Below are positions 23,647 to 63,525 of a stretch of DNA of 64,000 nucleotides, one piece after another (the stretch's first letter is position 1; every line of letters starts with the position of its first letter). The DNA is taken from assembly GCA_964518565.1 (NCBI GenBank), contig CAZFGX010000001.1:267046-331045 (forward strand), read 5' to 3'. The notes beneath the pieces were generated by a model. It had not been told where the DNA came from, did no database searches, and saw only the letters and a program-made list of their open reading frames with translations. This DNA comes from an uncultured Gammaproteobacteria bacterium. Lineage in GTDB: Bacteria; Patescibacteriota; Microgenomatia; CAZETR01; Amesbacteraceae. Made by a program: the position numbers and the translations under genes.

Positions 23647-25538
23647 TACCAGTCATCCTTTTAATATGCCCGCTTTTATTGTGGGGGAATAGATTTATAG
23701 TAGGGGGGGATGATTCTAAACTTTACTATGCATACCCAGAACTATATATAAAGAACTTTGCGTTAAATTTAGAGCAGAACAATACTTTATCAGGTGCCCA
23801 AACTGGTTATCAGCCTTTATCATATTTTATTCCCCTTTTGCTGGCAATTAAGTTTTTAAAATTTATACCTATTCTAAATCCTCAAATGATTCTATATGGA
23901 ATTAACCTATCTTTAGGATATTTAGGATTTTTGTCATTTCTGAAACAGTTAACTAAAAAATATCCACCAATAACATCAGGGCTACTATATATAACATCAT
24001 CTTTGCTAGGGCAAACTCTGTATGCACATCAATTACCATCAATTTATCTTGTTGGTACATGTCCGTGGATATTATTTTTTTTGTTAAAGTCAGTTGAATA
24101 TAACAAAAAACATTTTGCAATAATTTCAGCTGCCATTGCTTCTGTCGGAAGTAGTACGCTACTAACCCTGCCTTGGTCTATGGCGTTTATTGTAGGTTCA
24201 CTACCGCTGTTTATTTGGATGTTGGCTAAATATAAATTAATTTTATGTAAACATATCACAGTTTTTGTTTTTTCATTTTTGGTAATTAATACTTATTGGA
24301 TTGCTCCATATATTGATTCACAAATTTTTTCAAAAAAAAACGCTTTAATTAATTCATATTCCGGACAAAGTTTTATTAATGAAAATGTCAGAATAGTAGC
24401 TGGCGTTAGTAATTTATACCAACCAATAAATATTTTCTCTCAACAATTACAGCCGACATCTTCATACCTTTTAAAATTTATATTATCGGCCAGTGTATGT
24501 AGCATATTGATAATAAAAGGAATAAAAAAAAACAATTCAAAATTGGTATACATCTCATTTTTAGCTTTAATTTTAAATTTATTTTTAATTTCTCCAGGAG
24601 TGAGTTCATATGGAGTAAAAATATTCATTTGGTTAACAAAAAATATTCCATTTTGGGGTATGTTCAGAAATATGTATGATAAATTTTCTTTACCACTTAG
24701 TTTTTGGTTTGCAACATGTGCAGGAATTGCTATTCAATTTACAACAAACAAACTTAAAAAAGTATTTTTGACTATTTTATCCTGTCTGTCTGTACTATTT
24801 TCAATTAAGGACTATATACCTAATTTAAAGTTAATGAATGGATCGCGTGCATATTTCACTGGAAATTTCAGTTCTGACTTTGTTGATTTAGTAAGTTATT
24901 TATCTAAAAAAAATGATGGTAGAGTTATGTGGCTTCCTTTAAACTATCCGGCGTATTCATCAATTCAAGATAGCCAAGGAAATATATACTACGGTCCATC
25001 CCCTTTAAGAGAAATGGCAAATATTGATGACTTCACAGGAAGATTTAGTTTTCTTACATCAAATAACGTTGATTGGGGTAATAGGATAATTTCAGACATC
25101 CTTAAAAAAGATTATTCTTCATTAAAATCAGCAATTAATTTATTAAATATTAAGTACATTATTATTAATAATTTGGAGTTGAACAAAGAAATGTCGGAGT
25201 TTTTTTATGGTGGGGTAGAACAACAAATACTTTCAGCGCAGAATGGTGACTATATACAAAATATAGTAGGAGAAAAAATTACATCATTTGGAAATTTTGA
25301 TGTATATAAAGTATCAAAAGAAATCGAAAATAAAAATCCAAATTTTGTTTCCATTGCCTACTCTTCACACTGGATAAGTAGTAAATCAGGTGAACAGCTC
25401 TTACCGAGAAAAACATTCGGTATGATTTCAGAAAACAAAGATATCAAATTCAAATTGCCTGTTGTTATACCGTTCATTACGATCATATCCTTATTACTAT
25501 TTATACCTGGGTTTGTAATATGCTACCAAAAAAAATAG
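23622..25538 (+). CDS. Large polytopic membrane protein, paralog B. Putative GT-C-like glycosyltransferase.
   Basis: 638 aa and multi-helix. Shares the FRNMYDKFSLPL motif with paralog C. Confidence 0.5.
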   Translation: MQKAIRLLIPVILLICPLLLWGNRFIVGGDDSKLYYAYPELYIKNFALNLEQNNTLSGAQTGYQPLSYFIPLLLAIKFLKFIPILNPQMILYGINLSLGYLGFLSFLKQLTKKYPPITSGLLYITSSLLGQTLYAHQLPSIYLVGTCPWILFFLLKSVEYNKKHFAIISAAIASVGSSTLLTLPWSMAFIVGSLPLFIWMLAKYKLILCKHITVFVFSFLVINTYWIAPYIDSQIFSKKNALINSYSGQSFINENVRIVAGVSNLYQPINIFSQQLQPTSSYLLKFILSASVCSILIIKGIKKNNSKLVYISFLALILNLFLISPGVSSYGVKIFIWLTKNIPFWGMFRNMYDKFSLPLSFWFATCAGIAIQFTTNKLKKVFLTILSCLSVLFSIKDYIPNLKLMNGSRAYFTGNFSSDFVDLVSYLSKKNDGRVMWLPLNYPAYSSIQDSQGNIYYGPSPLREMANIDDFTGRFSFLTSNNVDWGNRIISDILKKDYSSLKSAINLLNIKYIIINNLELNKEMSEFFYGGVEQQILSAQNGDYIQNIVGEKITSFGNFDVYKVSKEIENKNPNFVSIAYSSHWISSKSGEQLLPRKTFGMISENKDIKFKLPVVIPFITIISLLLFIPGFVICYQKK

Positions 25539-28402: not shown

Positions 28403-28540
28403 ATATATATGTTTTGTTATCTGTCTATGTGGTTTGGTATTAGCAACAAACTTTAAAAAAAACTACACAATATATTTTGAATTTTTAATTATTGCATGCC
28501 TTGTCATTCTATTAGTCAGATATAGAAAAAAATAATAAAT

Positions 28541-31686: not shown

Positions 31687-32954
31687 AAATTGCTATTATT
31701 GGCGCAGGATTCACAGGGCTAGCTGCAGCACATCAATTAGGTAAAGATCACAATATTACAGTATTTGAAAAAAACTTAAACCCTGGTGGACTGGCACAGG
31801 GTTTTAAACAGTCTAATTGGGACTGGAGTTTAGAAGATCATTATCATCATATTTTTACTTCAGACAAAAATATTTATGATTTAGCTTTGAAAGTTAGACA
31901 TCCAATAGACTTTTATCAGCCAAAAACCAGCACATGGATAGATAACCATATATATCAACTTGATTCCGTGGCTTCTCTAATGAGATTTACTCCCTTATCA
32001 ATGATCTCTAGAATCAGAACCGGAATAGGTATGGCATCTTTAAAATTAAATCCATTTTGGAAACCTTATGAATATTTTACTGCCAAAAAGATGATTCAAT
32101 CCATGATGGGCAATGAATCTTGGGAAAAACTTTGGTCACCACTTTTTTTTGGTAAATTCCACTCATATGCCGAACAAATATCAGCCGCATGGTTTTGGTC
32201 CAGGATATATAAAAGAAGCCAGTCGTTAGGATATCCCCGTAAAGGATTTTTATCATTGGCTAAAACTATTGAATCAAATATTATATCCAATAAGGCAAAA
32301 TTTATTTATGGTACAACAGTCGAAAGAATTAAGTCAGTAAAGGGTGGAATAGAAATAAGAGCAGATGGCAAAAGCCAAATATTTGACCGAGTGGTCTGTA
32401 CATTACCTACAGCATATTTTTGTAAAATAACACCAGAGATCGAAGCAGATTTTGTACGAAAATACACAAAAATTGAGGGTTTGGGAGCTATAAATTTAAT
32501 TCTGTCTTTAAAAAATAATTTCTTCTCGGATGGAACCTACTGGTTAAACATCAACGATAAAAAAATACCCTTCCTTGCCGTAGTTGAACATACCAATTTT
32601 ATCTCTGAAAAATTTTATCATAATGAACATTTAATTTATGTAGGGTTATATGCTCCATCCTCTGATCAACGATTTAGCTATTCAGAAAAAGAACTTCTTT
32701 CATTGTATTTACCACATTTACAAAAAATTAACCCGAATTTTTCTGAAAAACAAATTAATAATATTTGGCTTAAAAAAGCAGCCTTTGCCCAACCTATAAT
32801 CCCTATACACTATTCTAAAAGCATCCCACCCATACGTACCTCAATGAAAAATGTATTTCTAGCAAATATGCAACAAGTATATCCCTGGGACAGGGGAACC
32901 AATTATGCAGTAAAATTAGGAATGGAGGTAGCCAAAGAATGCACCACAAATTAA
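31683..32954 (+). CDS. FAD/NAD(P)-binding oxidoreductase (amine-oxidase / protoporphyrinogen-oxidase / UDP-galactopyranose-mutase-like superfamily).
   Basis: KIAIIGAGFTGLAAAH...VFEKNLNPGG dinucleotide-binding fingerprint at the N-terminus. ATGA overlap with the upstream gene. Confidence 0.65.
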   Translation: MKIAIIGAGFTGLAAAHQLGKDHNITVFEKNLNPGGLAQGFKQSNWDWSLEDHYHHIFTSDKNIYDLALKVRHPIDFYQPKTSTWIDNHIYQLDSVASLMRFTPLSMISRIRTGIGMASLKLNPFWKPYEYFTAKKMIQSMMGNESWEKLWSPLFFGKFHSYAEQISAAWFWSRIYKRSQSLGYPRKGFLSLAKTIESNIISNKAKFIYGTTVERIKSVKGGIEIRADGKSQIFDRVVCTLPTAYFCKITPEIEADFVRKYTKIEGLGAINLILSLKNNFFSDGTYWLNINDKKIPFLAVVEHTNFISEKFYHNEHLIYVGLYAPSSDQRFSYSEKELLSLYLPHLQKINPNFSEKQINNIWLKKAAFAQPIIPIHYSKSIPPIRTSMKNVFLANMQQVYPWDRGTNYAVKLGMEVAKECTTN

Positions 32955-34198
32955 AGCAAGTTACATCGTCGAGTACGTTTCAGCAATCAGCTATTACTTC
33001 AATATCAACCTTCCTCTCAGCTGGATTTGGGGCAATATACTATCTTATCTTGGCTAAAATAATTGGGGTAAGAGAGTATGGCCTATTCTCTTTAGGATTA
33101 AGTATTTTACTGGCTGGAAGTTCACTTGCAGACTTAGGCATGGGACCAAGTATCGTCAGATTTGTTAGCGGCCACAAGCAGGAAAATACCTATGCTCCGT
33201 ATGCAAATGTTGCACTCAGAACAAAGCTTGTTACATCTACAGTCGCAATTCTTATTTTTACTATTTTTGCATCTTTTATAGCAAATAATATACTGCATCA
33301 GCCAGAAGTGGCGGATTTACTTCCCTGGGTTGGTTTTAGTATCGCTAGTTTTGTATTATTTTCATTCTCTGCTTCTATGTTTCAAGGTCTCCAAGAGTTT
33401 TGGTGGTGGGGTGGTATTCAAGTTGGTGCAAATATATTTCGCTTAATCATCATGGGACTATTTATAATCTTAGGCATTCTAAGCGCAAAAGTCGCCTTAA
33501 TTCTTTTTGGAGCAGCACTATTATCAGCATTTATTGTTTCATTCTTCAAATTAGATAAAAAAATTTTGACAACTCGCCCCGATACATCGCATGCATTAAA
33601 ATTTTGGGAATTCAATAAATGGACAGCAATTTTTACAATTTCTGCCTCGATTGTTGGTCGATTGGACACAATACTCGCAGCTCGCTATGTTTCCATATCG
33701 CAAGTGGGGATTTACTCTCTTGCGTTAACAATGACCTCATTTTTGCCGCAGTTGTCAGGCGCGCTGGGAGCAGTAACAGGACCAAAATTTGCTGGTTTCT
33801 CAAACAGTAAGGAAGCCAAGCAGTATCTGCGTAAGGCGTTATTCTTCTCTTCATCAATCGCTTTAGTTTGTTGCATTCTAATGATTCCAGCAGCAGCATT
33901 TGTAATTTGGTTTACAGGTAAGGATTATTCAGATGCATTCATTCCGTTTCTTATTCTATTGCTGGCGGTTGGCTTATTTACTGCTACAAATCCAGTACGA
34001 GATATTATTTTGTACGGATATAAAAAACCAAAATTTTTCTTCTTTTCAAGTCTTATTCAAGCAGTAGTAGTATGTCTGATTGGCGCAACTATTATTCCTC
34101 GGATTGGTATTGTAGGGGCATCGATATCGATGCTAATAAGCCAATTAGTATTAATTGTATTAAGTATTTTTTATTATTCAAAATTAAAGATGAAATGA
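32939..34198 (+). CDS. Polysaccharide biosynthesis protein / oligosaccharide flippase (Wzx-like, MOP superfamily).
   Basis: 419 aa with about 12 hydrophobic helices. Conserved R/K residues between helices are typical of PST-family flippases. Confidence 0.65.
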   Translation: MHHKLKQVTSSSTFQQSAITSISTFLSAGFGAIYYLILAKIIGVREYGLFSLGLSILLAGSSLADLGMGPSIVRFVSGHKQENTYAPYANVALRTKLVTSTVAILIFTIFASFIANNILHQPEVADLLPWVGFSIASFVLFSFSASMFQGLQEFWWWGGIQVGANIFRLIIMGLFIILGILSAKVALILFGAALLSAFIVSFFKLDKKILTTRPDTSHALKFWEFNKWTAIFTISASIVGRLDTILAARYVSISQVGIYSLALTMTSFLPQLSGALGAVTGPKFAGFSNSKEAKQYLRKALFFSSSIALVCCILMIPAAAFVIWFTGKDYSDAFIPFLILLLAVGLFTATNPVRDIILYGYKKPKFFFFSSLIQAVVVCLIGATIIPRIGIVGASISMLISQLVLIVLSIFYYSKLKMK

Positions 34199-42050: not shown

Positions 42051-42538
42051 TGAAATATTTAAATACATTATTTATTGGATTTTTTTTAATCGGAATAATA
42101 TATATTTTATATCCCGCATCTTCTTTTCCTCCACCACCAATAAATACGATTGTTTCAACGGAACCATCGGATACGGAAAGTATATATCGAAAGAGTTTTT
42201 TTACAAATTTATCCCGTGAAGAAATAATGGCATATTACAAACAAAGCTTTCCTCAGTCACAACGATTAAATCACCCTCCAGAGGACGCATTTATGTTAAT
42301 AAGAGACCAAACACGCAGCTCGTGGCTTGAAGAATTATCTAGACCATTTAAAAATACGCTATATATAAATGGTTTTTATCCAACAAAAGCGACAGAACAA
42401 ATATATCGCAACGGCAACCATTACAATGCAAAAATTACTATCAGATACATTCCCTACAACGTAGTAACGTCTATGACTGTATGGTGTTTAGCAGTATTAG
42501 CTACATACTTACTTATAAAAGAATATGTTAAAAAATAA
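42050..42538 (+). CDS. Hypothetical small membrane protein.
   Basis: 162 aa with N- and C-terminal hydrophobic segments. TAATG junction. Function unknown. Confidence 0.4.
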   Translation: MKYLNTLFIGFFLIGIIYILYPASSFPPPPINTIVSTEPSDTESIYRKSFFTNLSREEIMAYYKQSFPQSQRLNHPPEDAFMLIRDQTRSSWLEELSRPFKNTLYINGFYPTKATEQIYRNGNHYNAKITIRYIPYNVVTSMTVWCLAVLATYLLIKEYVKK

Positions 42539-43829
42539 ATCATATTTATTTATTGTCCTGGTGTTGATTGTTGTAATCTTGTATCCAAAATTTCCCTTAC
42601 TCGCAGTAAGTGGCAGCTTTGTTGCTATTAGATTAGAAGATATTTTAATCGCGTTAATAAGTATTTTTTGGTTAGTGGGGTCGAGAAAAAAAATAGCAGA
42701 AATCAAAAATCTACCCTTACACAGAACAATAATTTTATTTCTTATGATTGGTGCAATAGCTACCTTTGGGGGGATATTTCTTTCAAAAACCGTCGTACTT
42801 AGTCAAGGAATTCTCCATTGGACAAGAAGAATCGAGTATTTGATTGGCTTTTTTATTGCGTATGACGTGCTTAAAAATCAATCTCAACTTGTCATGTTAA
42901 TAAAAACTCTACTAGTTTCAAGTTTTTTTGTTTCAATTTATGGAATTGGTCAAAAATTTTTTAACTTTCCGTTAATATCCACAACAAACAGCGAATTTGC
43001 TAAAGGACTGGCGTTAACACTCGGTCCTGGTGCGCGTATAAACTCTACATTTGCAGGACACTACGATCTTGCTGCCTTTGCAATTATCCCAATAATAATT
43101 TCAGTGGGGCTGTTGACACTAAAGATAAAAAATAAATGGCTTTTAATAATAAATATGGCAATGATTTATTGGACCATGCTATTGTCAGCCTCACGAATTA
43201 CATTCGCTTCATTATTTGTATCTGTAGGAATATTATTGTTCTTAACAAAAAAATATACCTGGATGGTATGTCTGGTTGTTATTGCAATAATTAGTATTAT
43301 TGGTACTCCTCAACTTGCGGGCAGATATCGGGAATTAATTGTTAGTCACCTTATCTCAATAGTTCCTACTGTTTCTGCCCAAGAAGAGTCTAAAGCTGTA
43401 GACAGTGAAGTACCTGATGCATTAAAGCCTGCTGCAACTCCTGAAGACAGATCACTAAATATACGCTTAAAAGCCGAATGGCCAAAAGCTTTATTGGCAT
43501 TCAAAAAAAATCCCTTATTAGGGTCTGGATATTCTTCTGTTGGTCTGGCGGTAGATAATGACTATTTAAGAATCATGGCTGAAACTGGATTATTAGGTTT
43601 TTTTGCATTTATATTAATTCTCGTAAGAATCTATAGAAACTTTTTTGAAATAGTAAAACAGCCAAGCTCAATCTCAAGTATCTTTGTTATAAGTATTAGT
43701 TTAGGACTTTTATCCACATTAATTACTGGATTATTTATTGATATATTCGAAGCATCTAAAATTGCGATTATTATATGGATATGTCTGGGATTATCCGAAA
43801 AAGTAAAAACATGGGAATTAAAAAAATAG
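42525..43829 (+). CDS. O-antigen ligase / polymerase-like (Wzy_C family) membrane protein.
   Basis: Multi-helix protein with a large periplasmic loop. The loop carries PLLGSGYSSVGLAVDNDYLRIMAETG, which resembles the GxG...HN.YL signature of WaaL/Wzy-type proteins. Confidence 0.6.
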   Translation: MLKNKSYLFIVLVLIVVILYPKFPLLAVSGSFVAIRLEDILIALISIFWLVGSRKKIAEIKNLPLHRTIILFLMIGAIATFGGIFLSKTVVLSQGILHWTRRIEYLIGFFIAYDVLKNQSQLVMLIKTLLVSSFFVSIYGIGQKFFNFPLISTTNSEFAKGLALTLGPGARINSTFAGHYDLAAFAIIPIIISVGLLTLKIKNKWLLIINMAMIYWTMLLSASRITFASLFVSVGILLFLTKKYTWMVCLVVIAIISIIGTPQLAGRYRELIVSHLISIVPTVSAQEESKAVDSEVPDALKPAATPEDRSLNIRLKAEWPKALLAFKKNPLLGSGYSSVGLAVDNDYLRIMAETGLLGFFAFILILVRIYRNFFEIVKQPSSISSIFVISISLGLLSTLITGLFIDIFEASKIAIIIWICLGLSEKVKTWELKK

Positions 43830-46452: not shown

Positions 46453-47282
46453 CCAAAATTTTATCGATAGTAATATTAAGTTTTAACGGAAAAAAAATCT
46501 TATTCGACTGTTTAAGATCTATCCCCAAAAGCCCCAAATGGCAAATATTCGTAGCAGACAACGGTTCAAATGACGGAACATTAGAAATGATCCGTACAAA
46601 TTTTCCAGAAATTATTTTAATAGAAAATAAAAGTAATATCGGATTTGCAGCGGGAAACAACATTGTCTTAAAAAAAATAGAAACCGAATTCGTGCTTTTA
46701 TTAAATCCAGACACAATTGTCTATCCGAACAGTATTGAAACAGTTTTAAAATATATGCAAGAGAATCCTTTAGTTGGTGCCGCTACATGTAGAGTGGAAT
46801 TACCTAGTGGCGAATTAGATTATTCTTGCCATAGGGGATTCCCAGATCCAATAAATTCGTTGCTTCATTTTGTTGGCCTCAAAAAATTCTCGTCATATAC
46901 TGCTCAAAATATCCCTAGTACTGTTCATGAAATCGACTCACTAACTGGTGCGTTCGCCTTAATTAGAACTTCAGTTGGCAAACAGGTAAATTGGCTAGAT
47001 GAAGAATATTTTTGGAACGGCGAAGACATAGATTTTTGTTACAAAGTTAAAGAAAAAGGCTGGAAAATAATGTATTTACCTGATGTCAAAATCACTCACT
47101 TGAAGGGGTATGCGTCAAAAGCCAGTAAAGATAGACGGCTCGCGTGGGCAAAAAATTCTACTGAGGTTATGCGACTTTTTTATAAAAAGCATTTAGCGAA
47201 AAAATACCCAATTATTGTTAACATTGCTGTATATATTGGTATTTATGCGCTAAAAATAATTAGAACTGCGAAAAATATATGA
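46449..47282 (+). CDS. GT2 family glycosyltransferase.
   Basis: LSIVILSFNG, FVADNGSNDGT and LNPDT (DXD) motifs. Start at the ATG at 46449 (ATGA overlap). Confidence 0.8.
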   Translation: MTKILSIVILSFNGKKILFDCLRSIPKSPKWQIFVADNGSNDGTLEMIRTNFPEIILIENKSNIGFAAGNNIVLKKIETEFVLLLNPDTIVYPNSIETVLKYMQENPLVGAATCRVELPSGELDYSCHRGFPDPINSLLHFVGLKKFSSYTAQNIPSTVHEIDSLTGAFALIRTSVGKQVNWLDEEYFWNGEDIDFCYKVKEKGWKIMYLPDVKITHLKGYASKASKDRRLAWAKNSTEVMRLFYKKHLAKKYPIIVNIAVYIGIYALKIIRTAKNI

Positions 47283-48312
47283 AAACAATTTGTATAGATG
47301 CTAGATTCTTTGGAGTAAAACACACAGGAATAGGTCGCTATGTAGAAGAATTAATCAAAAACCTACCTACTTCAGAATCTATGCAAGTAGTTTTAATAAT
47401 AAATGAGTCAGATAAAAATAATCCAATACTAAAAAAATTTAAAGTTCATTTTGCTAATAGACACCCATACTCAGTTGCATCCCAAATAGAAATGACACGA
47501 TTGTTGTACAAGATTCACCCCGATTTGTTACATGTACCTCATTTTACAATTCCAATCCTATGGTTCGGAAAAACTATTGTTACAATTCATGATTTGATTA
47601 AACACATCTCAGTTGGAACATCAACGACTACATTAAATCCAATTGTATATATACTGAAACTTTTTGGATATCGATTTATTGTTTGGCTATCAATTAGCCG
47701 CGCTTATAAAATTATTACACCAACACTTTACTGGAAAAAAGAACTACAAAACTACTACCAAATAAACGAAAAAAAAATAGTTGTTACATATGAAGGAGTG
47801 ACCCAGTTATGACATCATTTCTTGTTTACACTGGAAATTTGTATCCTCATAAAAATGTTAATATCGCAATTGAGGCGGCTGAAAAGTTAGAAATTCCAAT
47901 TAAAATTATTTGTGCAAGATCCATTTTCCAAAATCGTTTAAAAAAATCAAAGTATGTAGAATTTTTAAATAACGTCTCCGATTCTCAAATAAAAACTTTA
48001 TACCAAAAAGCTATTGCGTTTATATTTCCTTCTCGTATTGAAGGCTTTGGACTCCCGGGCTTGGAAGCTATGTCCGTAGGCTTGCCTGTGATTGCAGCAA
48101 ATAGCTCATGTTTACCAGAAGTTTACGGCCAATCAGCATTATTTTTCGATCCAGACGATGTACAAGATTTAATAAAAAAAATTTCGTTGATTATGAATGA
48201 TAGTAGTCTGCGCAAAGACATGATTGAAAAAGGGTATAGACAAGCAAAAAAATACTCGTGGGCTAAAATGGCACAACAAACATGGGAAATATACCAAAAC
48301 GCATTGCAATAA
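47279..48312 (+). pseudogene. GT4 glycosyltransferase disrupted by a -1 frameshift near 47798-47800. The two halves correspond to track ORFs 47279..47812 and 47809..48312.
   Basis: The first ORF encodes only a GT4 N-terminal domain and ends ...VVTYEGVTQL*. The second encodes only the C-terminal domain (LYPHKNV...EGFGLPGLEAMSVGLPVIA). Inserting a single G (GGAGTG-G-ACCCAG) restores ...YEGVDPVMTSFLVYTGNLYPHKN..., a canonical continuous GT4 protein. Confidence 0.6.
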
Positions 48313-50455: not shown

Positions 50456-51106
50456 TTGTGCATGAACTACGAAATCCTCAAACGAATCATTGATATAGGT
50501 TTAGGAACATGTTTTATTATTTTCTTTCTTCCGATATGTATCATGGTCGCTATCGCAATAAAACTAGAATCACCGAACGGCCCGGTATTTGCAGATACGC
50601 CGCCGCGCGTAGGTAAAAACGGTAAATTGTTTTACACATATAAATTTAGATCGATGATTCCCAATGCTTATGAACTTCTTAAAACTGATCCAAGATTTAA
50701 AAAAGCCTATGAAGAACAGCAAAAAGGTGGAAACTATAAAATCATGCACGACCCAAGAGTGACAAAAGTAGGCAGATTTATTCGAAAGTATTCACTTGAT
50801 GAGGTGCCCCAATTTATAAATATTGTAAAAGGCGAAATGAGTCTTGTTGGCCCTAGGCCTTATTACGCTGAAGAATTAGAGAAACAGCAACAAAACTATC
50901 CAGATACAAAAGAATTGGTCAAAGAGACATTATCTATTAGACCTGGACTAACAGGAATTTGGCAAGTTTCTGGTCGAAGTAATGTAAATTTTGAGAAAAG
51001 AATCCAGCTTGATGCTCAATATGCTCGTACATTGTCATTGTGGTATGATTTAATTATTCTGGCAAAAACCCCGTTCGCCATGATCTCCGCCAAAGGTGCA
51101 GTATGA
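50456..51106 (+). CDS. Initiating phosphoglycosyltransferase (bacterial sugar transferase, PglC/WbaP C-terminal domain type).
   Basis: Single N-terminal TM helix followed by PNGPVF...YKFRSM...DEVPQFINIVKGEMSLVGPRP, the hallmark of polyprenyl-phosphate hexose-1-phosphate transferases. Confidence 0.8.
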   Translation: MCMNYEILKRIIDIGLGTCFIIFFLPICIMVAIAIKLESPNGPVFADTPPRVGKNGKLFYTYKFRSMIPNAYELLKTDPRFKKAYEEQQKGGNYKIMHDPRVTKVGRFIRKYSLDEVPQFINIVKGEMSLVGPRPYYAEELEKQQQNYPDTKELVKETLSIRPGLTGIWQVSGRSNVNFEKRIQLDAQYARTLSLWYDLIILAKTPFAMISAKGAV

Positions 51107-53085: not shown

Positions 53086-53630
53086 TGCGCAGTTATTCCG
53101 ATGAGGGTATAGTAGTAAAACGGTCAGACTACTCCGAAACTGATAAGCTAATTACTATCTTCACTGCCAATAATGGAAAAGTTACATATTTAGCTAAGGG
53201 AATCAGAAAAGTAACTTCAAGAAGAAGCGGCAGTTTAGAACTTTTTAATTATATAAAATTTTCCGCGATAAAATCGTTAAATCATGTTGAAATAATTTCA
53301 GAAGTACAATTATTAAACTCTTTTAATAATTGGCGAAATCAACTTGGTCGAATTACACTAGCGTATCAAATAGCGGAGACTATCGATAAATTAACTCCCG
53401 ATAATGAGCCACACGATGATATATTTAGACTACTAAAACAAAATTTAACTGATATTGGCCGTTTGGGACATAATTGGCAAACAGAAACCGAAAAATGGCT
53501 AATTAACATAGTGAAAGTTCTTGGATATTGGTCAGAGGAAGATTTTAATGGCGATATATATAAATATATCGAAGAAATATCTGCCAAAAATTTGCACTCA
53601 GTTAAATTATTAAACAGATTACGTTCATGA
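53085..53630 (+). CDS. recO: DNA repair protein RecO (short form, no Cys-rich zinc motif).
   Basis: The N-terminal OB-fold region GIVVKRSDYSETDKLITIFTANNGKVTYLAKGIRK matches the RecO family. Only 181 aa, and it contains no Cys. Confidence 0.65.
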   Translation: MRSYSDEGIVVKRSDYSETDKLITIFTANNGKVTYLAKGIRKVTSRRSGSLELFNYIKFSAIKSLNHVEIISEVQLLNSFNNWRNQLGRITLAYQIAETIDKLTPDNEPHDDIFRLLKQNLTDIGRLGHNWQTETEKWLINIVKVLGYWSEEDFNGDIYKYIEEISAKNLHSVKLLNRLRS

Positions 53631-54439
53631 AAAATAATTTTATTAACCAAGCAAAAAACAAATATCAAATTGTTTGTTCAACTGATGTAGTAGGGTTTTT
53701 AGGAAATCCTATGAATGCATATAAATTTTGGCGCTCAATAATCCCTTCAGATATAACATTCGGCTTAGAGGTAATTAGTTTTTATCATCACGTTCCTCTG
53801 CTAACAAAAATCCCAAACATAATCGGCTACCACGTACGATGCGATAGTTCATATATTCCCCGAAATTTAGATATCCCTATGTGGATAGTAAATTATCTAA
53901 TGGCAACGCCGCAAGATATTTTGCGTTTGATAGATTCTAAAAAAGATTTTTATATTAATAGTCATAATTTATATGTCTCTCAAATGAAAAAAATAATTTT
54001 TCCCGAAAACATTTATATGTTTTGTGAAAATGATAATGAACCCAATTCATATAAACAATCACTGGAACTCGGTAGAGCATATGATGGAACAATTTTCGAT
54101 ATCGTACACTACTGTGTTGAAAAAAAAGGTAAAATTGGCTGGGAAGTAGCTATAGATGAAGCGATAGAGAAGATATATGAAATTGGTCAATGTTTAGTCC
54201 ATATTTCATGGGGTTGGAATAAAAAAGACGCTTTACCTGAAGATATAAGTGACGGAACTCTAAAAAAGATATCCAAGGCTATTGAGGATACGTCAAGTAT
54301 GCCGGTGTTGGAATTTCAGTGGGGTAATAAAGATGGTTCAATTGGTTGTGATCCGACAAAAGACCCTCAAAAAGTAAAAAACGCCCAAATGAAAATTCAA
54401 AAATTAATCGAAACCGAAATAATAAAAAAAACGGAGTAG
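53627..54439 (+). CDS. Hypothetical protein. Possibly a xylose-isomerase-like TIM-barrel fold. Weak.
   Basis: 270 aa and soluble. A spaced acidic/His pattern (FCENDNEP, FDIVHYC, VHISWGW) loosely recalls sugar-phosphate isomerase/epimerase family motifs. ATGA overlap with recO. Confidence 0.3.
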   Translation: MKNNFINQAKNKYQIVCSTDVVGFLGNPMNAYKFWRSIIPSDITFGLEVISFYHHVPLLTKIPNIIGYHVRCDSSYIPRNLDIPMWIVNYLMATPQDILRLIDSKKDFYINSHNLYVSQMKKIIFPENIYMFCENDNEPNSYKQSLELGRAYDGTIFDIVHYCVEKKGKIGWEVAIDEAIEKIYEIGQCLVHISWGWNKKDALPEDISDGTLKKISKAIEDTSSMPVLEFQWGNKDGSIGCDPTKDPQKVKNAQMKIQKLIETEIIKKTE

Positions 54440-56874: not shown

Positions 56875-57300
56875 ATGTTCATTGGTCAATATGATCATCA
56901 ACTCGAATCAAAAGGTAGAGTCTCAATACCAAAAAAATTTCGTTCTCAATTAGAATCCGGGGCAATATTAAGCCAAGGATTAGACGGATGTCTATTTTTA
57001 TATCCGAAGAATGTTTGGGAACAGCTCATTAATAAAGTGTCCCAGTTACCACTTACACGCTCTGATGCTCGCTCGTTTACTCGAGCACTTAGTTTCGGCG
57101 CAACTGAAGTGGATATAGACCAACTTGGTCGTATTTTGATACCTGAATATTTGAAAAATTTTGCAAATATCCAAACAGAATGCGTAATCGCTGGTGCAAT
57201 AGACCGAGTTGAAATTTGGGACAAACATAAGTTTATTAGCTACGAAAACTCACTTAATTCCAATCGTGAATCGATAGCTGAAAAACTTGATTTACCATAA
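56875..57300 (+). CDS. mraZ: Transcriptional regulator MraZ.
   Basis: MFIGQYDHQLESKGRVSIPKKFR and the duplicated DxxxR-type MraZ domains. First gene of the dcw cluster. Confidence 0.85.
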   Translation: MFIGQYDHQLESKGRVSIPKKFRSQLESGAILSQGLDGCLFLYPKNVWEQLINKVSQLPLTRSDARSFTRALSFGATEVDIDQLGRILIPEYLKNFANIQTECVIAGAIDRVEIWDKHKFISYENSLNSNRESIAEKLDLP

Positions 57301-58126
57301 TCCAGTACTTTTACAAGCAACAGTCAAACTTTTAGATGTCGAACCAGGCGGCAAATATATAGATGCTACGCTTGGTGGCGGCGGACATACTCAAGAAATT
57401 TTAAATAATGGCGGATATGTTTTAGGCCTTGATCAAGATCAGGATGCCATTGATTTTTGTTCCAAAAAGTTTAGTCAATCAATAATCGAAAACAAACTTC
57501 GGATCATAAAATCAAACTTTATCAATATAAAACAGATTACAAATGATACAGATTGGAAACCAATCAAAGGAATAATTTTTGATTTGGGAATCTCTAGTCA
57601 TCAGATTGACACTCCCATGCGCGGGTTCTCTTTTCAAAATAATGGCCCTCTTGATATGCGGATGGATAAACAAATAACAGTTTCAGCACGAGAAATAATC
57701 AATAATTGGCCAGAAAAAGCAATTTCACAAATCTTAAAAAATTTTGGTGAGTTGCAAAACGCAAACCAGTTAGCAAAAAAAATAATCTCTGCTAGACCTC
57801 TAGACACTACGCATCAATTGTCCCAAGTCGTTCAGTCGGATCAGCGTCAAGTGTTTCAGGCCTTGCGCATCGCAATAAATGATGAATTGAGTAGCCTGTC
57901 CATGGCACTTGACCAATCAATTATGCTCGTAGCAAGTGGAGGAAAAATTTGTGTTATTACTTTCCATTCACTAGAAGACCGAATTGTAAAAACTGTATTT
58001 CAAGCCTGGGAGGACCAGAAAATTGGTGTAGTTCTTACCAGGTCACCAATAACACCAGATGATTGGGAACAATCAGAAAACAGTCGATCTAAAAGTGCAA
58101 AGTTGCGTGTATTTAAAAAATTATGA
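57287..58126 (+). CDS. rsmH: 16S rRNA (cytosine1402-N4)-methyltransferase RsmH (MraW).
   Basis: HNPVLL...YIDATLGGGGHT motif and a conserved C-terminal region. Confidence 0.9.
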   Translation: MIYHNPVLLQATVKLLDVEPGGKYIDATLGGGGHTQEILNNGGYVLGLDQDQDAIDFCSKKFSQSIIENKLRIIKSNFINIKQITNDTDWKPIKGIIFDLGISSHQIDTPMRGFSFQNNGPLDMRMDKQITVSAREIINNWPEKAISQILKNFGELQNANQLAKKIISARPLDTTHQLSQVVQSDQRQVFQALRIAINDELSSLSMALDQSIMLVASGGKICVITFHSLEDRIVKTVFQAWEDQKIGVVLTRSPITPDDWEQSENSRSKSAKLRVFKKL

Positions 58127-58407
58127 AAAAAATTACCATCATCATTCTCACAATCAATGCATTATGTGTAATGGGGCAATTAATCCTATCAACATTCCGA
58201 TCAAGTGGGGGAGTAGAGTTAGCTACTTTACGTTCTCAAACAGAACGGCTAACAAGAGAAAATAGTCAATTACAATCAATTATTTCAGAAAAATCTTCGT
58301 TAGCAGCAATTCAAATTGCTGCATCAAATGCAGGATATAAACCAATAAAAACAATTTCCTTACCCCCTCTGACCGTGGCTCAAGTAAGTGAAATAAGCCA
58401 TCCATGA
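58123..58407 (+). CDS. ftsL: Cell division protein FtsL-like (small bitopic membrane protein).
   Basis: 94 aa with one TM helix followed by a coiled-coil segment. It sits between rsmH and ftsI. ATGA overlaps on both sides. Confidence 0.55.
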   Translation: MKKITIIILTINALCVMGQLILSTFRSSGGVELATLRSQTERLTRENSQLQSIISEKSSLAAIQIAASNAGYKPIKTISLPPLTVAQVSEISHP

Positions 58408-60068
58408 AATCTAGGATTCGAGTAATACAAATTATCTTTGGCATCTGGTCATTTGTGCTACTCAGTCGACTTTTCTACTGGCAAATCGTCCAATCAGCCT
58501 CGCTCCGTGAACAGGGTAGAATACAGATTGGCAGGAGTGAAATATTGAGTGCGAGTAGAGGACAAATACTTGCTCAAGATGGTTATCCATTGGCTACGAA
58601 TATAGAAAAATATCGGTTATTTATCAATCCAAAAATTTTACCTAAAGATTTATCAAAGTTAGAAAAAATCTTAGAAACTATACCAGCCTCTGAAAGTGCC
58701 AAAGAAAATTTATCAAAAGCGAGAAACTCCGATGCTTCATGGTTTAGTATCGTCTCCGGTCTGAGTATTTCCACAAAAGAAGCCATTGATAATCTTGAAA
58801 TCGCTGGCGCTGGATTTGACCCTCAACCCGAGCGGGTATATCCAGAAGGCACCCCTAGCGCATATTTAACTGGATTTATTGGTAAAGATAAAGATGGACA
58901 AGATGTAGGTTATTTTGGAATCGAAGGTTATTTTGATCGACAGCTAAAAGGTATACCAGGAAAAAGAACTAATCAAGCAGATGCAATGGGCTTACCCATT
59001 CTTTTGGGGGAAATATCCTACATACCTCCACAAAATGGCAAGAATATCCAAACATCGATTGATCGAGTAGTACAACATGTTGCATTTGAAAAGCTTCAAG
59101 AAGGTTTGACAAAGTACCAAGCAGAAAGTGGTACTGTAACCATTCTCGATTCAAGATCTGGCCAAGTTTTGGCGATGTCTAGTTTGCCAGGCTACGACCA
59201 AAAAAATTACAATCAAGTAGAGTCGAGTAAACTAAAAAATCCTATCGTCTCTGTGAGTTATGAACCAGGATCAACATTTAAAACAATTATTATGTCTTCG
59301 GGTTTAGATGCTCAAGCTGTCAATCCAAACAGTATTTGTACGGCTTGCTCAGGGCCGTTAAAAATTGGTGATTATTTCATAAGAAACTATGATGATAAAT
59401 ATACAACCAATACAAATATGTTCGATATAATTTTACATTCAGACAATGTGGGTATGGTATTTGTTGGCAAACAAATAGGGCAAAAAAGGATGATTGAATA
59501 TTTGAAAAAATTTGGATTTGGCAAACTCACTGGGATTGAATTACAAGAAGAATCAATTTCAGAATTAAGACCTGAAAATGATTGGCATGAAATTGATTAT
59601 GCCACTACATCATTTGGACAAGGTATCGCTGTGACACCGCTTCAATTAACAGCTGCAGTAAATGTAATTGCCAATAAAGGGATATATCAACCCCCCAGAA
59701 TTGTTTTAGATACCCCAGGAAAAAATTCGACTAGGATTATTTCAGAAGTCGCGGCTAAATATACAACAGATATGATGGTTAATGGTGTCAAAAATGGAGC
59801 AGTGAACATTCATAGGCCAAAAGGATTTTTAGTTGCAGGAAAAACTGGAACAGCCCAAGTACCGATCGAAGGCCATTATGATGCAAATAAAACAATTGCT
59901 TCATTTGTAGGTTTTGCTCCGGCAAACAATCCAAAGTTCACCATGTTAGTCACTATTTCAGATCCTAAATCCTCGCCATGGGGCAGTACAACAGCTGCTC
60001 CTGTATGGTTTGCTATAGCCAAAGAGTTGTTTAGATACTACAAAATTCCAGAACAAACAGGCCTGTAA
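58404..60068 (+). CDS. ftsI: Penicillin-binding protein (class B transpeptidase, FtsI/PBP2-like).
   Basis: N-terminal TM anchor. Active-site motifs STFK (SxxK), SDN (HSDNVG) and KTGTA are all present. Confidence 0.85.
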   Translation: MKSRIRVIQIIFGIWSFVLLSRLFYWQIVQSASLREQGRIQIGRSEILSASRGQILAQDGYPLATNIEKYRLFINPKILPKDLSKLEKILETIPASESAKENLSKARNSDASWFSIVSGLSISTKEAIDNLEIAGAGFDPQPERVYPEGTPSAYLTGFIGKDKDGQDVGYFGIEGYFDRQLKGIPGKRTNQADAMGLPILLGEISYIPPQNGKNIQTSIDRVVQHVAFEKLQEGLTKYQAESGTVTILDSRSGQVLAMSSLPGYDQKNYNQVESSKLKNPIVSVSYEPGSTFKTIIMSSGLDAQAVNPNSICTACSGPLKIGDYFIRNYDDKYTTNTNMFDIILHSDNVGMVFVGKQIGQKRMIEYLKKFGFGKLTGIELQEESISELRPENDWHEIDYATTSFGQGIAVTPLQLTAAVNVIANKGIYQPPRIVLDTPGKNSTRIISEVAAKYTTDMMVNGVKNGAVNIHRPKGFLVAGKTGTAQVPIEGHYDANKTIASFVGFAPANNPKFTMLVTISDPKSSPWGSTTAAPVWFAIAKELFRYYKIPEQTGL

Positions 60069-60093: not shown

Positions 60094-60447
60094 ATGAAAA
60101 AAATTCATACCATATCATTCAAACATGCATTTGAAGGGTTGTGGTATGCCTGTAAGTCTCAACCAAATTTTCGTATTCATATTGTACTATCATCTTTAGC
60201 GATTGTATTAGGAGTATTGCTTCATATAACACAAATTCAATGGACTATTCTAACTATGACTATCACGTTGGGTCTTGTAATTGAGACGATAAATACATCA
60301 ATTGAATCTGTAGTAGATTTAGTGACCCAAGAATGGCGTATAAACGCTAAAAGAGCGAAAGACACTGCCGCAGCAGCAATGTTAATCTATGCGATTGGAG
60401 CCATTGGGGTAGCTGGTTGGTTATTTTTACCCAAAATATTTTTTTGA
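60094..60447 (+). CDS. dgkA: Diacylglycerol kinase / undecaprenol kinase (DgkA family).
   Basis: 117 aa with 3 TM helices and the E..NT.IE..VD......A..AKD signature (ETINTSIESVVD...AKRAKD). Confidence 0.75.
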   Translation: MKKIHTISFKHAFEGLWYACKSQPNFRIHIVLSSLAIVLGVLLHITQIQWTILTMTITLGLVIETINTSIESVVDLVTQEWRINAKRAKDTAAAAMLIYAIGAIGVAGWLFLPKIFF

Positions 60448-60448
60448 T

Positions 60449-61372
60449 ATGCCCACAATAGCGTTGTACCTTGGAATACTACTTTTTTCGTTTCTTGTTA
60501 CGAGTATTGCCATCGTCCCGGCCATAGATTTGTTATATCGTATCCAATTTATTAAAAAGGAAGTTGGAACACCAGCCGGTGGAGGGGTGCTATTGTTAAT
60601 CATTGTCACTAGTTTATTTGCCTTACTCTTTCCACTGGCATCCAGGTTTGGTGTATATGTGACTTCACATTTTCCGATAAGGTATGAAATCAATAGCTTT
60701 TTTTTTACGTTTGTTTCTTTTGGGTTGCTCGGACTGTATGAAGACTTGCATCAAATATTAAAAATGCCCAAAGCCAATATTCCGTTTTGGCTACTTAAAA
60801 TAGTGCTTTCCTGTTGTTCGTCACTCTTTTTATTTTTTAGCTTACACATAAATATTGTAAATTTACCTGGTTTCGGTGTTGTTCACCTGGGTGCCTGGTT
60901 CATACCGTTAATGACTATGTTTATTTATATCTTTATTGAAGGATTCGAAGCTTTAAAAGATTTAAATGGATTAGCTGGAGGAATTTTGCTCATTGTTTTA
61001 CTGGCATTGTGGTCAATTTCTTTTGGATCTGTCGATACACCATTATCTATATTGATTGCTATATGGATTGGAACATTGATAGCATTTTTGTATTTCAATA
61101 TTTATCCAGCCCGTATACTGCTTGGATCTGCCGGTAGTCTAGCATTTGGAGCAACATTGCCGGTAACAGGAACCCTTATAGGACGACCAGTAGCAGTCGT
61201 AGTTATCGGCGGGCTATTTGTGTTAGCGGCGTTATACAAACTCATTGCCCCAAAAAAAACACCAATAATTTTCTTACAAAAAAATGGCTGGAGTGAACCA
61301 AAAATTGTCTTCAGATCCTGGATTGTTGCTATTGTATTGGCAATAGGAGGCTTGTGGTTAGGAGGAATATAA
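60449..61372 (+). CDS. MraY-family phospho-N-acetylmuramoyl-pentapeptide transferase homolog, divergent at catalytic motifs.
   Basis: Clear similarity to MraY (TPAGGGVLL, FLYFNIYPARILLGSAGSLAFG, PIIFLQKNGWSEPKIVFRSWI) and position in the dcw cluster. The GDVGS Asp reads GSAGS and the PIHHH motif reads PIIFL. Confidence 0.55.
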   Translation: MPTIALYLGILLFSFLVTSIAIVPAIDLLYRIQFIKKEVGTPAGGGVLLLIIVTSLFALLFPLASRFGVYVTSHFPIRYEINSFFFTFVSFGLLGLYEDLHQILKMPKANIPFWLLKIVLSCCSSLFLFFSLHINIVNLPGFGVVHLGAWFIPLMTMFIYIFIEGFEALKDLNGLAGGILLIVLLALWSISFGSVDTPLSILIAIWIGTLIAFLYFNIYPARILLGSAGSLAFGATLPVTGTLIGRPVAVVVIGGLFVLAALYKLIAPKKTPIIFLQKNGWSEPKIVFRSWIVAIVLAIGGLWLGGI

Positions 61373-62446
61373 GTGATGACTGGAAAAAGTACAGCCCAGT
61401 ATTTATTTGTTCTTACGGTAATTTTGACATTGTTTGGCGTACTAATGGTAGGAAACGCTTCTGTCGTAACCGCAGCAAAAACCTTTGGAGATAAATGGTA
61501 CTTCTTAAAACTTCAAGGGGGTTTAGCTATTTTTGGCATAGTTGGATGCCTTGTTGCAAGCAAAATTCCTCTAAAAAAACTAGAAAAATTTGCTACTCCT
61601 TTTTTCTTGATTTCTATCGCTTTGTTGCTATTAGTCTTAATTCCTGGAATTGGTACGAAAGTTTTAGGCGCGAGAAGATGGCTAAACTTTGGGCCATTGT
61701 CCTTTCAACCATCAGAAATTGCCAAATTGGCGACCTCAATATATTTAGCCAAGCTGTTTAAAACAAAACCGAGTTTTACACATCTGTGTGTTGTTCTTGG
61801 TTTACTGGGTTTCTTAATCATGGCGGAGCCTGATATGGGCACACTGCTAGTGCTGACCGGAATGAGCGTCGGTGTATATTTTGGGTCTGGAGGAAAAATA
61901 TCCAGACTTGCCATGGCGCTACCTATTGTGGCAATAATTGGTGTAGTCGTTATTATTTTGTCACCATATAGAGCCAGTAGAATAAAAACATATTTTGACA
62001 TTTCGCACGATCCTCTCGGTGCATCCTATCAAATAAGACAGGCATTAATCGGTCTAGGATCAGGTGGATTTACAGGAGTAGGTTTAGGTGAATCACGTCA
62101 AAAATTCGATTTTTTGCCTGAGGCGACCACTGATTCAATTTTTGCCGTAATTGGCGAGGAAACTGGTTTTATTGGCTCAGCATTATTACTATTTGCTTTT
62201 ATCACACTCGGTGCACTGTGTTTAAAAGTAACTCAGAAAACATCCGATCGGTTTTCTCAAAATTTAGGCGTAGCAATTAGCTGTTGGTTATTATTACAAG
62301 TTTTTATAAATATTTCGGCAATTCTAGCGTTGTTGCCTTTTACTGGTATACCTTTAACGTTTATATCTTATGGTCGAACTGCCTTGCTAAGTTCGCTATT
62401 TGCCATGGGTATTATGATTAATATAGCTAAATCGGAAAAATCATGA
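61373..62446 (+). CDS. ftsW: SEDS family peptidoglycan glycosyltransferase FtsW/RodA.
   Basis: About 10 TM helices, with conserved LPE/GxGxG-like loop motifs (FDFLPEATTDSIFAVIGEETGFIG). Confidence 0.8.
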   Translation: MMTGKSTAQYLFVLTVILTLFGVLMVGNASVVTAAKTFGDKWYFLKLQGGLAIFGIVGCLVASKIPLKKLEKFATPFFLISIALLLLVLIPGIGTKVLGARRWLNFGPLSFQPSEIAKLATSIYLAKLFKTKPSFTHLCVVLGLLGFLIMAEPDMGTLLVLTGMSVGVYFGSGGKISRLAMALPIVAIIGVVVIILSPYRASRIKTYFDISHDPLGASYQIRQALIGLGSGGFTGVGLGESRQKFDFLPEATTDSIFAVIGEETGFIGSALLLFAFITLGALCLKVTQKTSDRFSQNLGVAISCWLLLQVFINISAILALLPFTGIPLTFISYGRTALLSSLFAMGIMINIAKSEKS

Positions 62447-63525
62447 ATCAAAAATATAAAATAGTATTCACAGGTGGGCATCACACAAGTGCCTTGGTAG
62501 TAGCTCGGGCTTGTAAAGAAAAAGGATATGATGTTGTTTGGTTTGGACATAGACATAGTATGTGGGGCGATGTATCAGATTCTGCCGAGTATCTAGATGT
62601 CACTGCAGCAAAAATTGAGTTCCATAACCTAGTAGCTGGAAAGGGTTATCGAACGTACAATCCATATAAATTGCTTCGTGTTCCGTTGGGATTTTTTCAT
62701 GCTTGGCATTTGCTTAAAAAAATGAAGCCAGATTGTATCGTCTCTAGTGGTGGATATTTAGCAGTTCCTACAGTAATAATTGGATATATATTGGGCATAC
62801 CATCATTGACTCATGAGCAGACCGTGACCACTGGTTGGGCAGCAAAAATAGTCGAAGTATTTGCGAAAAAAATTGCTGTCTCATGGCCTGAAAGTTTAAA
62901 ATATCACAATCCAAAAAAAACAACTCTTACTGGCTTGCCATTGCGGCCTGAAATAATAAAAATAAAGAGTGGCAAGAAAAACGAAAATAAAAAGCCAGTC
63001 CTTTACATTACTGGCGGGAAACAAGGTTCTCATAGAATTAATCAAGAAATATTTAAAATAATTCCCAAACTTGAAAAAACCTTTAAAATCATTCATCAAA
63101 CAGGAACTTCAACAGTTGTAAAAGATTTCGAACAATCGAAGAAATTTCACTCAGATTCATACGAATCCTTTGGATATAGTTCAGAAAAAGCTATATTGGC
63201 ACTCACAAGCTCAGATATGATAATTTGTCGGTCGGGTGCACACATGTGTTATGAAATCGGCTATCTGGGAAAAAAAGCCATTCTTATCCCTTTAGCTTAC
63301 GCATCGCACAATGAGCAAAAAGAAAATGCTTTGGTGCTGCAAGAAGCAGGGCTTGCCACTATTATCGAGGAAAATGATCTGAGCGAAAAAACAATATTTC
63401 AAGCGATTAATGAAATAATTGGAAAAAGCGTTCAGCCACTGAATTTGCCCGAAGATGCTACAAAATCTATGGTTCATTTAATTGAACAAATATGCAAAGA
63501 TCACGTAAGTCAATCCACATACTAA
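62443..63525 (+). CDS. murG: Undecaprenyldiphospho-muramoylpentapeptide beta-N-acetylglucosaminyltransferase MurG.
   Basis: GT28 two-domain pattern with an N-terminal Gly-rich loop (FTGGHHTSAL) and C-terminal ICRSGA...E..........IP motif. ATGA overlap with ftsW. Confidence 0.75.
   Translation: MNQKYKIVFTGGHHTSALVVARACKEKGYDVVWFGHRHSMWGDVSDSAEYLDVTAAKIEFHNLVAGKGYRTYNPYKLLRVPLGFFHAWHLLKKMKPDCIVSSGGYLAVPTVIIGYILGIPSLTHEQTVTTGWAAKIVEVFAKKIAVSWPESLKYHNPKKTTLTGLPLRPEIIKIKSGKKNENKKPVLYITGGKQGSHRINQEIFKIIPKLEKTFKIIHQTGTSTVVKDFEQSKKFHSDSYESFGYSSEKAILALTSSDMIICRSGAHMCYEIGYLGKKAILIPLAYASHNEQKENALVLQEAGLATIIEENDLSEKTIFQAINEIIGKSVQPLNLPEDATKSMVHLIEQICKDHVSQSTY

Follow-up and report, generated by a model that had tools for sequence, protein, structure and literature searches.

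A division-cluster MraY ortholog with an eroded active site in an Amesbacteria-related bacterium

What becomes of cell wall synthesis when the mraY gene, still in its usual place among the division genes, has lost nearly all the residues of its active site? MraY (phospho-N-acetylmuramoyl-pentapeptide transferase), which turns UDP-MurNAc-pentapeptide and C55-P into lipid I and UMP, is regarded as essential to wall synthesis in all bacteria and as hardly varying between them. It is a major antibiotic target, and its D115/D116/D267 triad is held to be indispensable. The question is raised by a gene, here called mraY*, in a 64,000-nucleotide stretch of contig CAZFGX010000001.1 (positions 267,046 to 331,045; GenBank assembly GCA_964518565.1), referred to below as the window. 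Because it occupies the ancestral mraY position of the division and cell wall (dcw) operon and is nested inside the Microgenomates MraY tree, mraY* is the vertically inherited dcw ortholog of an Amesbacteria-related Microgenomates bacterium of the Candidate Phyla Radiation (CPR), and not a paralog as the initial annotation had considered. On sequence comparison, it is the extreme member, or end-point, of a clade-wide remodelling of MraY. In the reading that we favour, with a probability of roughly one half, the mraY* product no longer makes lipid I in the canonical way and would persist as a non-catalytic membrane subunit.

Residues of the active site and the protein fold

The mraY* product was aligned by HMMER to the solved MraY structures of E. 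coli (8g01) and A. aeolicus (4j72), and by MAFFT together with 120 to 250 homologs. The E. coli sequence in the MAFFT alignments agrees with the HMMER alignment to 8g01, and the two methods concur on the placement of residues in the mraY* product, the losses being borne out by three independent alignments. Residue numbers are those of E. coli MraY unless marked AA (A. aeolicus). The gene and the codons concerned are as follows.

60449-61372, + strand: mraY*, 307 aa, MraY fold with an eroded active site
60740-60745, + strand: codons E98-D99, at the position of the DD motif D115-D116, of which D116 alone is kept
60938-60973, + strand: codons 164-175, EGFEALKDLNGL, at the position of the loop-C motif NAVNLTDGLDGL
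61118-61129, + strand: codons 224-227, LLGS, at the position of FMGD, with F264L and D267S
61259-61273, + strand: codons 271-275, TPIIF, at the position of APIHH(H), with the loop-E histidines lost, adjoining a deletion of ~12 residues in transmembrane helix 9b (TM9b)/loop E

The mraY* product keeps 1 of 12 canonical site residues, compared with a median of 11 of 12 in 82 diverse full-length MraY representatives, all from outside the mraY* clade and taken from an exhaustive HMMER search of 1.84 billion representatives; among these 82, D195 is conserved in every one, D198 in 80 and D267 in 73. The essential D267 is replaced by S227, as had been read by eye in the initial annotation, the canonical stretch of 12 residues aligning with YPARILLGSAGS. 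Its description of the first DD motif as ED also stands: 'VDDYRK' aligns with 'YEDLHQ', which turns D115 into E98, keeps D116 as D99 and introduces K119Q. With K68E and K133F, all three conserved lysines are gone. The loop-C motif NxxNxxDGxDGL has become ExxExxKDxNGL (N189E, N192E, D195K, G196D, D198N), and the canonical loop-E stretch of 15 residues aligns with TPIIFLQKNGWSEP. The loop-E histidines are indeed lost, but the tools place I-I-F (H325I, H326I, H327F) where IFL had been proposed, an immaterial shift of one residue; Q307 (now Ala) and P323 are lost from TM9b/loop E as well. The multiple alignment restored neither Asp nor His at the catalytic positions and lengthened the list of losses originally given by the loop-C motif, the three lysines, F264, Q307 and P323.

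Structural work on the A. aeolicus enzyme gives these positions their meaning. D265 of MraY(AA) is the Mg2+ ligand and D117/D118/D265 form the essential DDD triad; K70, G194, L195, D196 and F262 make up the uracil pocket, T75, N190, D193 and G264 the uridine-adjacent pocket, and Q305, A321, H324 and H325 the TM9b/loop-E pocket, while N190 and D265 contact the same ligand amine (PMC6606608). In the mraY* product, the triad (D115, D116, D267 in E. coli) reads E98, D99 and S227, and the uracil pocket is altered by K68E, D198N and F264L.

The erosion is selective, being confined mainly to the cytoplasmic catalytic loops. Canonical-site relatives are at least 95% conserved in 117 alignment columns. 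The mraY* product keeps 84 of these (72%), and the 33 that it loses concentrate in loop A, the DD loop, loop C, positions 264/267 and TM9b/loop E. The transmembrane core is invariant family-wide, as are the motifs YFNxYPxR and GWxEPKxxxRxW (100% across ~120 sequences).

The mraY* product matches PF00953 (Glycos_transf_4), the profile of the polyprenyl-phosphate N-acetylhexosamine-1-phosphate transferase (PNPT) superfamily, with 63.3 bits, above the cut-off of 27. Against the MraY equivalog TIGR00445 it scores 56.6 bits, below the cut-off of 192.05, under which canonical-site Microgenomates relatives also fall (171-173 bits), and against the archaeal pseudomurein MraY profile NF053644 it scores 41.8 bits, below the cut-off of 450. 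An AlphaFold2 model built on 34 relatives (predicted local distance difference test score, pLDDT, 91.3; predicted template modelling score, pTM, 0.89) has ten transmembrane helices, a periplasmic beta-hairpin and the loop-E helix, and its Foldseek TM-score is 0.80-0.83 to MraY(AA), 0.79 to E. coli MraY and 0.62 to human GPT (DPAGT1). At the level of a predicted structure, the MraY membrane fold is thus shown to be kept. The open reading frame (ORF) is present as first described and short, at 307 aa, because parts of cytoplasmic loop A and of TM9b/loop E (~12 residues) are deleted.

Might this pattern be an artefact of a by-eye misalignment, a sequencing error or a frameshift? We consider that reading refuted, and its probability negligible. 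HMMER, MAFFT and structure-based matches agree; a protein identical to the mraY* product is present on four independent contigs or assemblies, one of them a 1,001,365-bp NCBI contig; and the substitutions are common to divergent homologs of 50-63% identity (P0002, P0019). The feature is real, reproducible and unusual.

MraY types among the Microgenomates

The relatives surveyed were the best 120 homologs, together with 80 GTDB loci and 80 JGI loci among the matches listed, and all of them belong to the Microgenomates (Amesbacteria, Shapirobacteria, Woesebacteria, Collierbacteria-like and others). The closest among the matches listed in the GTDB locus scan is 49% identical to the mraY* product. 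The window organism is closest to Amesbacteria, with an identity of 78-84% in FtsZ and ~70% in FtsA, and of only 50-57% in MraY.

Several types of MraY can be distinguished in this set. D-type proteins have the canonical signature. N-type proteins, ~70 distinct Amesbacteria-type sequences, combine N192D with D267N and keep the remaining site residues; their loci include L002-L004, L006, L009, L012, L014, L018, L020, L026, L047 and L086-L107, with mraY at ~10001-11040 in each. The Q type (L005, L088, L095, L100 and L101; P0011, P0015, P0042 and P0043; several from Hainich groundwater assemblies) is 279-281 aa long, has the whole DD-motif loop deleted and carries Gln at 267, and its gene still lies between an intact ftsI-dgkA pair and ftsW. 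The R type is another small degenerate group. The S type includes the mraY* product, P0002 (its nearest homolog, 63% identity) and P0019 (51%, from a syntenic locus).

A neighbour-joining tree gathers all non-D267 forms in one clade, sister to a Collierbacteria-like D-type group (L070, L077), and the degenerate S, Q and R types arise several times within it. The order of events in the clade is thereby shown: the exchange of D267, mostly by N192D with D267N, came first and was followed by a roughly two-fold faster evolution of MraY and by the loss of further catalytic elements in several sub-lineages, each on its own. The acceleration is seen in pairwise identities. At an FtsZ identity of 80-90% (FtsA ~70%), MraY identity is 81% between D-type pairs, 56% between N-type pairs and 52% between the window and N-type sequences. 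At equal FtsZ divergence, FtsW identity also falls, from 63% in D-type loci to 46% in the non-D267 clade, while MurG is unchanged. TIGR00445 scores drop stepwise, from 171-173 bits in the D type to 150-170 in the N type, then to 86-95 and finally to 37-57.

Residues 192 and 267 appear to be exchanged together. Among 254 distinct family members, the pair is Asn/Asp in 164, Asp/Asn in 70, Asn/Asn in 5 and Asp/Asp in none. Judged from these sequences, N192D/D267N is an apparently compensatory swap in which the Mg2+-binding carboxylate seems to have moved naturally from 267 to 192, a move that is structurally plausible because N190 and D265 of MraY(AA) touch the same ligand amine. Our literature search found no published description of the N-type or other such MraY variants. 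As a separate observation, five sequences from outside the mraY* clade (P0199, P0210, P0219, P0230 and P0249) have Asn at 267, with Asn, Ser or Ala at 192 and an intact HHH motif, and may be other natural D267N variants.

These exchanges raise the possibility that mraY* still encodes an enzyme, with a re-wired site in which the carboxylates have moved (E98/D99, E167 at 192, D171 at 196) and which would pass a sugar phosphate on to polyprenyl phosphate, with another donor possibly taking the place of UDP-MurNAc-pentapeptide. We regard this as possible but rather doubtful. The reciprocal 192/267 pairs argue for it, as do the plausibility of a relocated Mg2+ carboxylate, given that the mraY* product has Glu at 192, and the conservation of D116, D196, N198 and S267 in P0001, P0002 and P0019; the dgkA-like kinase encoded directly upstream could supply polyprenyl phosphate, and the downstream enzymes require a lipid-linked substrate. 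However, the acidic residues are not constant even in close relatives, E164 and E167 being Arg and Gln in the closest homolog, P0002, and E98 being Arg in P0019; the entire uracil pocket (K68, D198, F264), the three lysines and the loop-E histidines are gone; and five family members carry the Asn/Asn pair. Moreover, sister lineages without the DD loop keep FtsI, FtsW and MurG intact, which suggests that catalysis by mraY* is dispensable in the clade.

The division cluster and the source of lipid I

The genes that surround mraY* are listed below.

56875-57300, + strand: mraZ, head of the dcw operon
57287-58126, + strand: rsmH, also in the operon head
58123-58407, + strand: ftsL-like gene, also in the operon head
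58404-60068, + strand: ftsI (class B penicillin-binding protein), transpeptidase motifs STFK, SDN and KTGT intact
60094-60447, + strand: dgkA-like kinase gene (PF01219, 110 bits)
61373-62446, + strand: ftsW (SEDS polymerase), catalytic PExxTD motif intact
62443-63525, + strand: murG (GT28), motifs TGGH, GGKQGS, CRSGA and E intact
past the window end, on the same contig as mraY*: ftsQ, ftsA and ftsZ

The order is mraZ-rsmH-ftsL-ftsI-dgkA-[mraY*]-ftsW-murG-ftsQAZ, with mraY* at the ancestral mraY position between ftsI(-dgkA) and ftsW-murG, and the genes are co-oriented and tightly packed. The ATG of mraY* begins 1 nt after the TGA stop of dgkA, whose family, PF01219, comprises diacylglycerol and undecaprenol kinases, and the ribosome-binding site of ftsW (AGGAGG) is located within the last codons, at the 3' end, of mraY*. 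This packing with dgkA and ftsW, the syntenic locus and the features common to homologs of 50-63% identity mark mraY* as a maintained ORF. We found neither mur genes nor a second PF00953 gene in the whole window and from -7 kb to +73.5 kb around the locus, a region of ~80 kb in a genome of ~1.0 Mb; the initial remark that murE, murF and murD are missing from the cluster holds over all of this region.

The absence of mur genes sets the altered clade apart from its relatives. A typical D-type cluster reads ftsI-murE-pgeF-murC-murB-murA-murF-mraY-murD-ftsW-murG, as checked with Pfam in L024. We counted loci with a same-strand upstream ftsI that have at least one murA-F gene within ±10 kb; these number 61 of 65 for D267 loci versus 0 of 36 for non-D267 loci, the loci being phylogenetically non-independent. 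ftsI(-dgkA) abuts the mraY* counterpart in 36/36 non-D267 loci, and dgkA adjoins it in 27 of them. Four D-type loci (L070, L029, L146, L153) also have the compact cluster. Among these, L070 (CAYQZQ010000001.1, 725,544 bp) combines a canonical-site MraY with a compact ftsI-dgkA-mraY cluster without mur genes, whereas its sister L077 keeps murA, murD, murE and murF nearby, and it may represent an intermediate stage in which the mur genes were lost or moved before the D267 change. No MurE cluster with at least ~47% identity to the L077 MurE was found on the L070 contig among the best 120 MurE matches, Microgenomates MurE being very divergent, which hints that L070 has no vertically inherited murE on its 725-kb contig. 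Murein genes can, however, be scattered in Microgenomates, as in L077 and in L085, where murE stands alone, and a gene missing from the cluster may therefore still be encoded elsewhere in the genome. Independently of these counts, several D-type dcw clusters of Microgenomates have a pgeF/YfiH-type gene (PF02578) located between murE and murC (L024 4376-5098).

Such scattering bears on a further explanation, namely that mraY* is a functionless, redundant relic drifting to loss, and that relocation or horizontal replacement has put a canonical mraY, probably accompanied by the mur genes, at another site of the genome. The absence of murA-F from all 36 non-D267 clusters, the accelerated evolution, the repeated and independent loss of different catalytic elements and the scattered mur genes of L077 and L085 would all fit. 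Against this stand an intact, full-length ORF with a confidently predicted fold and the retention of 72% of the family-invariant columns, including YFNxYPxR and GWxEPKxxxRxW. Furthermore, not one of the 36 loci, at FtsZ identities down to ~78%, has a frameshifted or truncated copy, which argues for purifying selection on something. We consider the relic explanation unlikely.

The neighbours of mraY* show no comparable erosion. SxxK, SxN and KTG are present in 32/32 of the FtsI proteins encoded in N, S and Q loci, and the catalytic motifs of FtsW (PExxTD) and MurG (TGGH, GGxQG, RxGA and the Glu) are likewise intact in N, S and Q loci. Judged by these motifs, the membrane steps after lipid I look functional, which would mean that these organisms have lipid I or lipid II at their disposal.

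The selective loss of the site, the retention of fold and ORF, the repeated independent degeneration and the intactness of the other wall enzymes together lead us to favour the view that canonical catalysis is dispensable in this clade. The mraY* product would no longer transfer phospho-MurNAc-pentapeptide to undecaprenyl phosphate by the canonical route, and would be kept as a non-catalytic membrane subunit of a DgkA-FtsW-MurG-FtsI module, perhaps as a scaffold or as a binder of polyprenyl phosphate or of a lipid-linked precursor. Selection would then remain on the conserved transmembrane core and on YFNxYPxR and GWxEPKxxxRxW, and lipid I would come from something encoded elsewhere or from outside the cell.

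Several observations weigh against a non-catalytic role. No other lipid I synthase was found in the ~80 kb inspected of the ~1.0-Mb genome, though lipid I is needed with FtsI, FtsW and MurG apparently functional. The three nearest relatives have D116, D196, N198, L264 and S267 in common, the D196 being new, and a remodelled site with the acidic E98, E164 and E167 nearby is possible on the sequence. The N-type parent keeps the other catalytic residues and has its carboxylate at 192 in place of 267 (70 Asp/Asn pairs versus no Asp/Asp), a pattern that suggests that catalysis was retained at least there. Finally, we know of no experimental demonstration of a non-catalytic MraY role in any organism. 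Of the two alternatives offered in the initial annotation, an inactive paralog or a divergent enzyme, the loss of canonical activity is well supported by residue losses wider than first stated; the label of paralog does not hold, and a divergent enzyme is still to be reckoned with, given the conserved D116/D196/N198/S267 and the N192D/D267N swap.

A bolder proposal takes in the whole clade: that a peptidoglycan-building CPR clade, the Amesbacteria-related Microgenomates, has moved off canonical MraY, mostly by shifting the carboxylate from 267 to 192, with several sub-lineages, including this genome, catalytically dead and drawing lipid I from a non-homologous enzyme, or lipid-linked or nucleotide precursors from a host. 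We put this forward as speculation and think it improbable as a whole, although the missing murA-F genes of the division cluster would be in keeping with independence from canonical MraY. The clade offers a natural lineage that keeps FtsW, FtsI and MurG intact while the MraY site is re-wired and then erased. Should lipid I come from a second synthase or be scavenged, wall synthesis in host-dependent, ultra-small bacteria would have a new point of entry. Activity of the N192D/D267N forms would mean that the metal-binding carboxylate of MraY is relocatable, with a bearing on its mechanism and on inhibitor design, and if mraY* encodes a true pseudoenzyme, a structural divisome role of MraY would be separable from catalysis. 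The clade-wide remodelling is previously undescribed; our searches of the literature for an MraY pseudoenzyme, for MraY variants in CPR bacteria and for peptidoglycan in Amesbacteria returned nothing relevant.

The upstream glycan island and likeness to known systems

Directly upstream of the dcw operon lies a glycan-biosynthesis island of more than 50 kb, covering window positions 1-51106 and ~7 kb further upstream (seen in L083). It encodes more than 25 glycosyltransferases of families GT2 and GT4, PMT_2/GT-C proteins, sugar epimerases, methyltransferases and nucleotidyl transferases, and includes the following.

32939-34198: Wzx-like flippase of the glycan island
42525-43829: Wzy_C protein of the glycan island
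50456-51106, + strand: Bac_transf (PglC-type) phosphoglycosyl transferase, 198 bits, with a syntenic counterpart in the P0019 locus

With such an island next to it, and with a match to the general PF00953 profile, mraY* could belong to another PNPT subfamily (WecA/TagO/WbpL-like) and initiate the synthesis of the island's glycan; the ~50 kb of glycosyltransferase-rich sequence upstream is what makes this worth weighing. We consider it very improbable, and treat it as ruled out by phylogeny, synteny, structure, motifs and the separate Bac_transf. The position between ftsI and ftsW, the GWxEPKxxxRxW motif, the loop-E helix and the periplasmic hairpin are MraY-specific, the TM-score is 0.8 to MraY versus 0.62 to GPT, and the protein is nested in the Microgenomates MraY tree. 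To our knowledge, every PNPT enzyme needs the Asp residues that the mraY* product lacks. The island, moreover, has its own Bac_transf gene at 50456-51106, which likely encodes its initiating enzyme, judging from the profile match, and mraY* is therefore not needed in that capacity.

Other features of the window and its surroundings were recorded along the way. Within the island, the two halves of a GT4 protein are encoded by overlapping ORFs, Glyco_transf_4 (N-terminal) at 47279-47812 and Glycos_transf_1 (C-terminal) at 47809-48312, which represent a gene that is either frameshifted or truly split. No Pfam match was obtained for three large ORFs in a row (638, 960 and 842 aa) at 23622-31069, within the part of the window with the lowest GC content (27-30% versus 32-37% elsewhere). 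Between recO and glyS, both S-type loci have an ORF of 270-277 aa without a Pfam match (53627-54439 in the window; 3601-4434 in L084), which N-type loci, L004 and L006 for example, apparently lack there. Beyond the window end, a second SEDS (FtsW/RodA) gene (L001 18282-19340, corresponding to about window 70.7-71.8 kb) follows ileS downstream of ftsZ, an order kept in most related loci. The window has nearly all of its genes on the + strand and a steady rise in cumulative GC and AT skew over the 64 kb, similar to the compositional asymmetry between strands that has been described in Collierbacteria- and Beckwithbacteria-related genomes (PMC7143001).

Set beside known systems, mraY* resembles pseudoenzymes in general in its conserved fold and core, its selective loss of catalytic residues and an ORF kept across divergent relatives; it differs in that its non-catalytic role is one that we infer. 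With WecA, TagO, WbpL and the eukaryotic GPT/DPAGT1 it shares the PF00953 match and the overall PNPT fold (TM-score ~0.62 to DPAGT1), but those enzymes keep the DDxxD and NxxNxxDGxDGL aspartates that are absent here, whereas mraY* carries MraY-specific motifs in an MraY-type genomic context. The N-type MraY belongs to the same clade, with 50-57% identity, a replaced D267 and the same compact ftsI-dgkA-mraY-ftsW-murG operon without mur genes; it keeps K68, the DD motif, K119, D195, D198 and H325 and has Asp at 192, whereas the mraY* product keeps D116 only and has Glu at 192. Canonical MraY (TIGR00445; 4J72, 5CKR, 8G01) shares with mraY* the ten transmembrane helices, the periplasmic hairpin, the loop-E helix (TM-score ~0.8), the operon slot between ftsI and ftsW, the 'FNxYP' that starts loop D and the C-terminal 'GWxEP(K/R)xxxRxW'. 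What separates the two is the absence from the mraY* product of D115, D267, K68, K119, K133, N189, N192, D195, D198, F264 and H325-327, together with the deletions in loop A and TM9b/loop E and a TIGR00445 score of 56.6 bits against a cut-off of 192.

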